Origin: Escherichia coli
GTDB lineage: Bacteria; Pseudomonadota; Gammaproteobacteria; Enterobacterales; Enterobacteriaceae
Assembly (NCBI RefSeq): GCF_011045215.1
Contig: NZ_CP049201.1
Direction: 5' to 3' (one strand)
Length of the DNA stretch: 64,000 nt
Shown: positions 62,201 through 64,000 of the stretch, in pieces
Numbering within the stretch: the first letter of the stretch is position 1
Layout of the letters: each line of letters opens with the position of its first letter
The notes under the pieces: generated by a model
Databases searched by the model: none
Told to the model about the DNA's origin: nothing
What the model saw: only the letters and a program-made list of their open reading frames with translations
Position numbers and translations under genes: made by a program

Positions 62201-63451
62201 TTGTTAATGAGAAAAGCAGAAGTGAATGACTCTTTCATCACAAAAATCCTGACAGGTAATAACGTTCTGCGTGCTGCAATTGCCCGCATTGAGTGGGTTT
62301 TTGAAACATTTCCGTCGGTATGTCTGTCTTTTTCAGGTGGAAAGGATTCCACCGTACTGTTCCATCTTGTGGCAAATGTGGCCCGCAGGAAAAAACGTCG
62401 ATTCTCTGTACTGTTCATTGACTGGGAAGCCCAGTACCAGTGTACCGTTGAACATATTCAGAAGATGCGGAATATGTACGGGGATGTGACGGAGACCTTT
62501 TACTGGGTGGCACTTCCCCTGACCACGGTAAACGGTGTCTCACAGTTTCAGCCGGAGTGGATATGCTGGGAACCTGGTGTGACCTGGGTCCGTCAGCCAC
62601 CGGAAGAGGCCATTACGGATATGGCGTATTTTCCCTTCTACCGGTATGCCATGACCTTTGAAGAATTTGTTCCGGCATTTTCTTCCTGGTTTGCCGGTAA
62701 CCGGTGCGGTGTGGCGATACTGACTGGTGTCCGTGCGGATGAATCCCTCAACCGCTTTATGGGACTGGTGTCTCAGCGTAAGCTCAGATATGCCGATGAT
62801 AAACCCTGGACCACGGCATCACCTCAAGGGTTTTACTACACCATGTATCCATTGTATGACTGGAAAGCCCGTGATATCTGGATATATAACGCCAGAACCC
62901 GTGCCATCTACAATCCCCTGTATGACCTGATGTACCGTGCCGGTGTGCCGTTACGTAACATGCGTGTCTGTGAGCCTTTTGGCCCGGAACAACGTAAGGG
63001 GCTGTGGCTTTACCATGTTCTGGAGCCGGAAACCTGGGCCAGGATGTGTGAGCGGGTGTCAGGGGCTGCCAGTGGGGCGCGTTATGCCAATGAAAGCGGT
63101 GCCTATTTTGCCCTGCGTAAACGTATATCAAAACCGGCTCATCATACCTGGCGCAGCTATGCGATGTTCCTGCTGGATGTGATGCCGGAAAGAACGGCAG
63201 AACATTACCGTAACAAAATTGCTGTCTACCTGCGCTGGTATCAAACGCGGGGCTTCCCGGACGATATCCCGGATGAACAGGAAAATGACCTGGGCTGCCG
63301 GGATATTCCGTCCTGGCGACGTATCTGTAAGACACTCATAAAGAATGATTTCTGGTGCCGGACCCTCTCCTTCAGCCCGAACAAACCCCGGCACTATGAA
63401 CGTTACCTGCAGCGTATGAAAGAAAGGAGGAAGGAATGGGGGATTCTGTGA
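62201..63451 (+). CDS. PAPS-reductase-family (PP-loop) protein, IbrA-like
   Basis: PP-loop motif SFSGGKDS near the N-terminus; ~415 aa; stop overlaps the start of the downstream ParB-like gene; start TTG at 62201 or ATG at 62207. Confidence 0.7.
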   Translation: MLMRKAEVNDSFITKILTGNNVLRAAIARIEWVFETFPSVCLSFSGGKDSTVLFHLVANVARRKKRRFSVLFIDWEAQYQCTVEHIQKMRNMYGDVTETFYWVALPLTTVNGVSQFQPEWICWEPGVTWVRQPPEEAITDMAYFPFYRYAMTFEEFVPAFSSWFAGNRCGVAILTGVRADESLNRFMGLVSQRKLRYADDKPWTTASPQGFYYTMYPLYDWKARDIWIYNARTRAIYNPLYDLMYRAGVPLRNMRVCEPFGPEQRKGLWLYHVLEPETWARMCERVSGAASGARYANESGAYFALRKRISKPAHHTWRSYAMFLLDVMPERTAEHYRNKIAVYLRWYQTRGFPDDIPDEQENDLGCRDIPSWRRICKTLIKNDFWCRTLSFSPNKPRHYERYLQRMKERRKEWGIL

Positions 63452-64000
63452 CAGCGGAGATACTGGGTAACATGATTCGTCAGTACTTCAGCCAGGAGCG
63501 AGCAGAAGAAGAGACCATACAGGCTCTGAATCATCTGCGCAGGGTGCTGCATGAGGTCAGTCCTTTTGCACAGGAGCCTGTGGACTGTGTGCTGTGGGTG
63601 AAAGCGGATGAGGTGGTGGCCAATGATTATAACCCCAATGTCATGGCACCGGGTGAGAAAAAACTGCTGAAACATTCACTGGAGCAGGATGGGTTCACGC
63701 AGCCTGTGGTTGTCTCGGAAGAGAAGGAGCATTATCTGGTCGTGGATGGTTTTCATCGTCAATTACTGGGCAGGGAAGCAGGTACGGGAAAACGTCTGAA
63801 GGGCTGGTTGCCAGTGACCTGTATTAATCCGGACAGAAGGGGGCAGGCCTCACGTATTGCTGCGACCATTCGACATAACCGGGCCAGGGGGAAACACCAG
63901 ATAACCTCAATGTCTGATATTGTCAGAGACCTGTCACGTCTGGGCTGGACGGATGAACGCATTGGTACAGAGCTGGGGATGGACCAGGATGAAGTGCTGA
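63448..64000 (+). CDS. ParB-like nuclease-domain protein, IbrB-like (3' end lies outside window)
   Basis: Open frame to the window end; ParB N-terminal motif (VVDGFHR); GTG overlapping the upstream stop. Confidence 0.6.
   Translation, partial: MTAEILGNMIRQYFSQERAEEETIQALNHLRRVLHEVSPFAQEPVDCVLWVKADEVVANDYNPNVMAPGEKKLLKHSLEQDGFTQPVVVSEEKEHYLVVDGFHRQLLGREAGTGKRLKGWLPVTCINPDRRGQASRIAATIRHNRARGKHQITSMSDIVRDLSRLGWTDERIGTELGMDQDEVL

Follow-up and report, generated by a model that had tools for sequence, protein, structure and literature searches.

A plasmid-borne ibrAB gene pair

The 3' end of a 64,000-nucleotide stretch of Escherichia coli DNA (assembly GCF_011045215.1, contig NZ_CP049201.1; hereafter the window) carries two overlapping genes, ibrA and ibrB, which on sequence grounds almost certainly constitute an intact plasmid copy of ibrAB that is read as one operon. 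The ibrA coding sequence (62207..63451, + strand) encodes a protein of 414 amino acids (aa) that combines a PP-loop ATP-pyrophosphatase domain with a DUF3440 domain. Its open reading frame (ORF; 62201..63451, +) reaches 416 aa when counted from an in-frame TTG at 62201, which adds two codons, and the ATG at 62207 is the ibrA start, again for 414 aa, in the RefSeq annotation of a near-identical plasmid, plasmid A of E. coli C5. The first 188 of the 212 codons of ibrB (63436..64000, +) code for a predicted ParB/sulfiredoxin (Srx)-fold nucleoside triphosphate (NTP)-binding domain and a helix-turn-helix (HTH)-like tail. The two genes meet in a coupling region (63425..63451, +), in which the ibrB ATG (63436) is situated 5 nt 3' of an AGGAGG sequence (63425-63430), and the ibrA TGA codon (63449-63451) closes a 16-nt overlap between the genes (63436-63451). 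An earlier note on this DNA, made from the window sequence, had described a PP-loop protein of about 415 aa, the stop codon of which overlaps the start of a ParB-like frame running off the window edge. The Pfam matches of the 414 aa protein to PAPS_reduct and DUF3440, the 16-nt overlap and an ibrB frame with no stop in its 188 codons up to the window end bear out each of these points.

Plasmid A of E. coli C5 (NZ_CP010123.1) matches positions 61000-64000 of the window with 99.9 % identity (megablast; three single nucleotide polymorphisms), and provides the remainder of ibrB, which goes on for 74 nt beyond the window end to a TAA codon (window-equivalent end 64074) and encodes 212 aa. Because ibrB is complete in this plasmid, its frame is not interrupted beyond the window. 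The RefSeq product names on C5 plasmid A are 'phosphoadenosine phosphosulfate reductase' for ibrA and 'IbrB-like domain-containing protein' for ibrB. Comparison of the plasmid and chromosomal alleles gave low ratios of non-synonymous to synonymous substitution (dN/dS; 0.09 for ibrA and 0.11 for ibrB), and both genes are therefore kept by purifying selection. ibrA and ibrB are a real, intact gene pair and not chance ORFs.

The IbrA/IbrB-like identity put forward in the earlier note was confirmed by comparison with named homologues. IbrA and IbrB are 94 % and 95 % identical, respectively, to a chromosomal E. coli pair (e.g. strain NCTC9082), RefSeq-named 'IbrB-like domain-containing protein', and a protein of Escherichia phage PhiR5_2 annotated as 'IbrA, co-activator of prophage gene expression' shares 92 % identity with IbrA. 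The arrangement also fits the module, with PAPS_reduct followed by DUF3440 in a protein of the expected length (~400-415 aa), a ParB N-terminal-type domain and HTH-like tail in a second protein close to the expected ~210 aa, and two same-strand genes that overlap, ibrA being the first and ibrB the second. The IbrA/IbrB ('immunoglobulin-binding regulator') of E. coli ECOR-9 and of the O-islands of Shiga toxin-producing E. coli (STEC) comprise the same two overlapping genes, with the same domain architectures and order; the identity values to named IbrA/IbrB were measured on the chromosomal E. coli alleles and phage PhiR5_2. According to the passages in PMC8065619 and PMC6008420 that cite Sandt, Hopper & Hill (2002; J Bacteriol 184:3640), ibrA and ibrB are jointly needed for the activation of silent prophage eib genes. 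A paralogous pair of identical architecture, likewise with overlapping genes, is formed by YbdN/YbdM of E. coli K-12 (b0602/b0601; 58 % identity for the A and 55 % for the B protein). While ybdNM is a syntenic core-genome locus across the Enterobacteriaceae, ibrAB is accessory and mobile.

Full-text literature searches on IbrA/IbrB, YbdN/YbdM and DUF3440 yielded no biochemical study of the pair, which agrees with the earlier note. The ibrAB pair itself is an already known and already annotated module, and its instance in the window is ordinary and adds little, given that the same DNA is present in RefSeq at 99.9 % identity. The wider family is of greater consequence, as it is very widespread, is reported to regulate surface virulence proteins and has gone for more than 20 years without an assigned chemistry.

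Pairing and gene neighbourhoods in genomes and phages

The neighbourhoods of ibrA homologues were surveyed at 79 genome loci, which span the Enterobacterales, Bacteroidota, Verrucomicrobiota, Firmicutes, Alphaproteobacteria, Helicobacter and one Asgard metagenome-assembled genome (MAG), and at 80 viral loci or contigs (159 in total). An IbrB-like ORF adjoins ibrA in 78/79 genome loci, and the contig bearing the remaining one stops right after ibrA. This ORF is found downstream on the same strand in 76 loci and upstream in two, and in 71/77 loci the two ORFs overlap or are no more than 60 nt apart. Among the viral loci, 76/80 encode an IbrB-like protein within about three genes of ibrA. By this distribution, the pairing of IbrA with IbrB is evidently ancient and obligate.

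The only recurrent extra partner in the genomes is a SNF2-family helicase (Firmicutes, Verrucomicrobiota, Alphaproteobacteria and Bacteroidota), which is encoded directly upstream of ibrA and on the same strand in 16/79 loci (median intergenic distance, 2.5 nt). A related helicase (phrog_62) is present in 16/80 viral loci, and both settings thus have a three-gene helicase-IbrA-IbrB block (e.g. L054:3840-5531; L155:4784-5998; and, in split form, L088:5904-7072 of Streptococcus phage PY1). Furthermore, a domain of ~120 aa, here termed X, accompanies the pair in 57/80 viral loci, either as a C-terminal fusion to IbrB (20 loci; e.g. L118:4163-5413) or as the product of a separate adjacent gene (e.g. 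L160:5640-6065); a genome locus provides a further example (L029:4787-5974). Domain X has the consensus ..kWEc..aGfy...eW..SCEhyLtn..mNRiAWlGqAa..., shows no match in Pfam, PHROG or the PDB, and has 227 database relatives, all named 'hypothetical'. It is absent from the E. coli IbrA and IbrB proteins. No informative domain fusions were found among long IbrA homologues, the extra sequence of which lacks Pfam matches except for one partial ABC_tran.

The viral neighbours of the pair are mostly replication and recombination genes, including those for Sak4-like proteins, RecE-like exonucleases, NinG/Rap and helicases. Several arrangements would instead accord with a role in DNA packaging, the phage pair being a small-terminase-like or pac/cos-site accessory and the E. 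coli copies its remnants. For example, gp4 (IbrA) and gp5 (IbrB) of Mycobacterium phage Phlyer (L090:1069-2717) directly precede the large terminase gene, the place expected for a small terminase, the pair of Flavobacterium phage FCL-2 (L091:5340-7009) is situated, in B-then-A order, between the large terminase and portal genes, and on a metagenomic phage contig the pair follows a capsid gene. A packaging function is nevertheless very unlikely, considering that most viral loci have a replication/recombination context and that a terminase occurs within the 6-kb flanks of only 7/80, at variable distance. In phage PY1 the helicase-IbrA-IbrB block comes after the lysis genes and before the replication genes, and the plasmid and chromosomal copies are under purifying selection with no packaging genes nearby.

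The gene neighbourhoods also bear on a defence function, which the earlier note had raised and for which little support was found. IbrAB would here be an anti-phage defence system, or an anti-restriction/anti-defence module that shields the DNA of the mobile element itself. Helicase, TerB-N, AAA and exonuclease genes do neighbour the E. coli copies, which occupy variable islands, and DndB/DndC and BrxP show a similar combination of domains. In phages, the pair is part of early/replication modules and is accompanied by SNF2 helicases, a setting that is usual for the methyltransferases and anti-restriction genes of phages. However, PADLOC returned only weak partial hits for IbrA, namely to BrxP (28.4 bits over the 80 residues 25-104 only, of a 779-position model that includes a DUF4007 fusion) and DndC (at most 18.7 bits). 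No nuclease or effector gene recurs beside the pair in either the 79 genome or the 80 viral loci, and the pair is common inside phage genomes. The orthologue ybdNM, moreover, occupies a fixed syntenic chromosomal site across the Enterobacteriaceae, and no report of a defence phenotype was found in the literature searched. Defence or anti-defence is thus judged distinctly improbable, although less so than packaging.

IbrA as a predicted PP-loop enzyme with no conserved cysteine

IbrA matches PAPS_reduct (PF01507; 1.4e-16) and DUF3440 (PF11922; 6.1e-33) in Pfam, along with a weak PP-loop match, and the nearest solved folds are those of the phosphoadenosine phosphosulfate (PAPS) domain of flavin adenine dinucleotide (FAD) synthase, the adenosine phosphosulfate (APS)/PAPS reductases and CysD. 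The PP-loop motif SGGKDS (residues 43-48; 62333..62350, +) is strongly conserved in a cross-phylum alignment of 59 sequences, in which G45, K46 and S48 never vary and the conservation of S43, G44 and D47 is at least 94 %. Other invariant or near-invariant positions are D72, E74, R176, E179, S180 and D223, as well as the tryptophans W100, W118, W121, W127, W219 and W225. These features identify IbrA as a predicted ATP-binding PP-loop enzyme of the CysD/FAD-synthase/PAPS-reductase clade.

Within this clade, the product name in RefSeq would make IbrA a CysH-type PAPS reductase, an assimilatory sulfur 'auxiliary metabolic gene' (AMG) product to which the ParB-like neighbour is incidental. The filing of PHROG 2302 as 'auxiliary metabolic gene' agrees with that name, and proteins of the DUF3440 clade are treated as CysH in virome studies (bioRxiv 10.1101/2021.01.05.425418). 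The protein itself argues strongly against this assignment. The cross-phylum alignment contains no conserved cysteine, the best position reaching 76 % and being Ala in the window IbrA, and none is conserved C-terminally. The catalytic Cys in the C-terminal ECGLH motif of CysH has no counterpart in IbrA, the alignment of which to 2o8v stops before ECGLH. The scores against the CysH/PAPS-reductase models of NCBIfam amount to 31-36 bits against cutoffs of 154-254 (TIGR02057, 36 vs 254; NF002537, 34.6 vs 154), and the SGGKDS loop is of the ATP-hydrolysing type. CysD also carries an SGGKDS loop of this type. Furthermore, an obligate ParB-fold partner is encoded at 78/79 loci. A CysH-type function is consequently the least credible of the explanations considered and can be regarded as extremely unlikely.

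As no cysteine is conserved, IbrA would be neither a PAPS reductase nor DndC-like, nor an iron-sulfur (Fe-S) thiolase. It is distinguished from CysD, CysH and the FAD synthase PAPS domain not only by the lack of a catalytic Cys, but also by an extra Trp-rich insert (W100, W118, W121 and W127), a DUF3440 domain of 167 aa and the obligate ParB-fold partner. The DUF3440 domain (residues 248-414; 62948..63448, +) is all-helical and basic (isoelectric point (pI) 9.7), as is IbrA as a whole (pI 9.35), and probably contacts nucleic acid. By analogy with CysD and FAD synthase, IbrA most likely transfers an adenylyl group to an acceptor that resembles phosphate or sulfate, at one of its oxygens. The absence of a conserved cysteine, taken together with the obligate ParB-fold partner, makes it probable that the labels 'PAPS reductase', 'cysH AMG' and 'ParB partition protein' mislead, and the same two features suggest that the cysH label attached in virome studies and PHROG to the phrog_2302/PF11922 clade is wrong for this clade.

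IbrB as a predicted ParB-fold partner with an acidic tail

IbrB belongs with phrog_2159 (4.5e-82), and the predicted structure (predicted local distance difference test (pLDDT) 83) gave ParB-CDP, Noc and KorB as top Foldseek matches (E ~1e-7; 150-165 columns), covering the N-domain and the HTH region. The KorB-KorA co-complex 8qa9 is among the best structural matches, while sulfiredoxin and free serine kinase appear lower in the list. A profile hit to Noc (4.6e-8) places GFHR of IbrB opposite GERR. The motif DGFHR (residues 104-108; 63745..63759, +) accordingly occupies the place of the ParB Box II GERR, and in 44 sequences D104, G105 and R108 are invariant, with H107 conserved in at least 90 %. 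In the Box III region, IbrB carries an invariant RHNRARG rather than ENxxR, as part of the motif IRHNRARGxH (residues 145-154; 63868..63897, +), of which R146, H147, N148, R149, A150, R151, G152 and H154 are invariant. The conservation of this motif extends over Enterobacterales, Firmicutes, Bacteroidota, Verrucomicrobiota, the Asgard MAG and phages. IbrB is more conserved than IbrA, the E. coli protein sharing 40-50 % identity with those of Firmicutes, Bacteroidota and the Asgard MAG, and its invariant motifs comprise YNPN, DGxHR, (T/V)IRHNRARGxH and GMDxDE..LRLKQ..GL.

The ParB-CTPase clamps ParB, Noc and KorB are thus the closest structural relatives of IbrB, which differs from them in having GFHR for GERR, RHNRARG for ENxxR and an acidic HTH-like region, and in lacking a ParA or parS context. 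The C-terminal dimerisation domain of these proteins is likewise absent, IbrB ending ~12 residues past the HTH-like helices. The protein is acidic (pI 5.7), particularly in its HTH-like tail (pI 4.2), where invariant Asp and Glu residues stand at the start of the would-be recognition helix. The invariance of this acidic helix from E. coli to Lachnospiraceae and the Asgard MAG points to a universal ligand or protein partner rather than to host-specific operators, and such a partner would most simply be the basic IbrA. According to a published survey (PMC12704722), neither sequence nor AlphaFold3 at present allows the nucleotide specificity of this fold to be predicted.

Proposed function of the pair

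The tentatively favoured interpretation, held with somewhat less than even confidence, is that ibrAB encodes an adenylyl transferase and an NTP switch, which work as an obligate pair and are directed at DNA or a nucleotide. IbrA would use ATP as the donor of AMP, with an acceptor that bears phosphate or oxygen, and would neither reduce PAPS nor carry sulfur, and IbrB would be its obligate NTP-gated partner, which may load, position or activate IbrA on DNA or present the nucleotide substrate. The pair would then represent an orphan nucleic-acid- or nucleotide-directed modification module of phages, plasmids and islands, and the activation of eib genes a downstream effect, epigenetic-like or stress-mediated, that would come about by an epigenetic mark, by relief of silencing or by partial induction of the prophage, in place of classical operator binding. 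This interpretation is favoured because the pairing is obligate, the PP-loop site is conserved, the IbrB fold is ParB-like and the neighbours are DNA-transaction genes, and because ParB-fold partners serve DNA-modifying enzymes in other systems (DpdB/DpdA and DndB/DndC). A DNA-modification role, as contemplated in the earlier note, is in this respect plausible.

Among these systems, DndB/DndC of DNA phosphorothioation, as well as the related SspD and BrxP, likewise bring together a ParB-superfamily protein and a PP-loop enzyme of the PAPS-reductase clade that act on DNA. IbrA, however, lacks the cysteines of DndC, and IbrB has a different architecture from DndB, with DGFHR and an HTH-like tail. 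In PMC10164549, DpdB is described as a ParB-like NTPase that is required for DpdA to modify DNA with 7-deazaguanine. The DpdA/DpdB system follows the same logic as that proposed for IbrB and IbrA, but DpdA is a transglycosylase of the tRNA-guanine transglycosylase (TGT) family and not a PP-loop enzyme.

Neither of two characterised systems could be assigned to the locus. The earlier note had considered that a canonical Dnd or other characterised multi-gene system might follow ibrAB downstream, and this is excluded by C5 plasmid A, in which a 60-aa hypothetical ORF and then IS66 fragments are found. No dndA/iscS, dndD, dndE, sspABC, PglZ, BrxC or dpd genes occur near ibrAB in that plasmid, and no parA gene is located next to ibrB. 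A canonical Dnd system was rejected on the absence of dndA, dndD and dndE nearby, the lack of a conserved Cys and a score against the DndC model (TIGR03183) of 14.9 bits, far below the cutoff of 290. The BREX (bacteriophage exclusion) type 4 protein BrxP was similarly rejected, the hit being partial and the BREX gene context missing. No Dnd/Ssp partner family recurs in the 159 related loci, and no nuclease, cysteine desulfurase, ABC (ATP-binding cassette) ATPase or methyltransferase recurs beside the pair in the 79 genome loci.

Several observations count against the adenylyl-transferase/NTP-switch interpretation. The Pfam ParB_N match of IbrB is below threshold (E 0.0015; 18.9 bits vs a cutoff of 26.3), and direct DNA binding by IbrB is made less credible by the acidity of its HTH-like tail. 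The DUF3440 fold is without a solved relative, charge being the sole basis for its nucleic-acid role. The phage positions of the pair vary, from the replication module to next to the terminase or after lysis, and no report of DNA modification, ATP-PPi exchange, NTP binding or an IbrA-IbrB complex was found in the literature searched. In addition, gene activation, the only experimental phenotype, is explained more simply by a transcription-factor model.

That model is the main rival, and holds that IbrAB is a true transcription activator, with IbrB as a KorB/Noc-like NTP-gated DNA clamp, loaded at specific sites close to target promoters, and IbrA as its co-factor, as KorA is to KorB, and no covalent modification taking place. 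The co-activation of eib genes, which needs both ibrA and ibrB and is the sole published phenotype in the cited passages (Sandt 2002, in PMC8065619 and PMC6008420), would follow directly, and the KorB and KorB-KorA (8qa9) matches of IbrB are in keeping with such a clamp. Regulatory genes also accompany the pair, a PerC-family gene being found 3' of chromosomal copies and a Rob-like regulator beside the plasmid copy, and K-12 ybdNM has a dedicated LysR repressor, CitR/YbdO (PMC9068703). A passive co-factor, on the other hand, needs no ATP-pyrophosphatase site that is invariant across phyla, and operator-specific regulators do not resemble IbrB, whose acidic HTH-like helix stays invariant between E. 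coli, Firmicutes phages and the Asgard MAG. Of the ParB features, both the glutamate of GERR and the dimerisation domain at the C-terminus are missing from IbrB, and phages of unrelated hosts, lytic or temperate, carry the module among replication/recombination genes. On balance, direct transcription activation appears rather unlikely, though likelier than defence or packaging.

The adenylyl-transferase/NTP-switch interpretation can be carried further, to a more doubtful proposal in which IbrAB is the minimal core of a phylum-spanning system, borne by mobile elements, whose ATP-dependent adenylyl transfer either places a covalent mark on DNA or yields a nucleotide signal. The SNF2 helicase or the IbrB-fused X domain, the latter in many environmental phages, would be optional third parts of this core. 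If true, the mark made by IbrAB would explain the activation of silent prophage genes, and thousands of viral 'cysH sulfur AMG' annotations would be wrong. The lack of a conserved cysteine in IbrA, the obligate and hyper-conserved IbrB, its acidic HTH-like tail and the recurrent SNF2 helicase and X domain offer handles for experiments.

Distribution of ibrAB and homologues

DNA of ibrAB, at 80-95 % identity, is present in 2155/5426 complete E. coli genomes. It also occurs in 579 PLSDB plasmids, including those of Klebsiella (318 plasmids), Escherichia (180) and Shigella (61, with truncated copies). The Shigella virulence plasmids (Shigella flexneri pINV) retain only ibrB and the 3' end of ibrA, while the Klebsiella pneumoniae hypervirulence plasmid pLVPK carries an 89 %-identical ibrAB between fecIRA and iroBCDN (L172:8978-10839). 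Few two-gene modules are as widespread as this pair on enterobacterial virulence plasmids (pLVPK, the Shigella pINV remnants and STEC-type plasmids), on genomic islands and in phages of many phyla. IbrA homologues form 314 clusters (50 % identity; E < 1e-30) and are present in 220 cultured-phage records, with hosts that include Flavobacterium, Mycobacterium, Streptococcus, Arthrobacter and Bacillus.

Plasmid surroundings of ibrAB in the window

The copy in the window differs from chromosomal IbrA/IbrB in being plasmid-borne, with a Rob-like regulator gene upstream and no PerC-family gene downstream. In chromosomal E. coli islands, a PerC-family regulator gene is situated ~80 nt 3' of ibrB (L002:10912-11181; L003:10912-11181), and this gene is missing from the plasmid copy in the lineage of the window. 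Homology to the chromosomal copies begins at ~62242, the upstream region and the first ~10 IbrA residues having been replaced; neither the promoter region nor the first ~10 codons of the plasmid ibrAB are thus shared with those copies. A weak promoter-like site (TTGTCA-16-TATTAT; 62036..62063, +) lies ~145 nt upstream of ibrA, and is given for context, as the sites found in a promoter/terminator scan did not exceed the shuffle expectation (4 found vs 3.2 expected). A repeat search upstream of ibrA gave no convincing parS-like palindrome, and an Rfam scan of window positions 56000-64000 produced no matches.

The upstream neighbour of ibrAB is a gene for a Rob/SoxS-like AraC-family regulator (60729..61568, +; Pfam HTH_18/HTH_AraC, with a partial NCBIfam RobA hit), the position of which does not imply membership of the module. 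Its junction with ibrAB is rare and is found only in seven ruminant E. coli/E. fergusonii plasmids. The regulator gene (60729-61568) ends a block of surface/virulence-plasmid type (~54200-61568, +), which encodes a polysaccharide deacetylase, a GT4 glycosyltransferase, VirK/YbjX, DUF4056 and several hypothetical secreted proteins. This block presumably resembles the shf-capU-virK clusters of enteroaggregative E. coli (EAEC) and Shigella plasmids. On the other side of ibrAB, beyond the IS66 remnants of C5 plasmid A and ~4.4 kb past the window end, a gene for a YadA-family trimeric autotransporter adhesin of 767 aa is present (L001:19484-21787, -). The Eib proteins, which are the reported targets of IbrAB, are of the same protein class as the YadA-family adhesins.

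The window is colinear with the C5 plasmid only over ~25850-64000, with the first 25 kb matching in pieces at 92-93 % (BLAST), and its source is therefore a related but different mosaic plasmid. A SIR2/ATPase pair of the C5 plasmid was for this reason not assigned to the window, colinearity being limited to the part from ~25.8 kb onwards. At its 5' end, the window contains type II secretion genes (83-7655, +; secretin C-terminus, GspE, GspF, GspK and GspL), followed by an AbiEii-family toxin gene (8554-9498, -).

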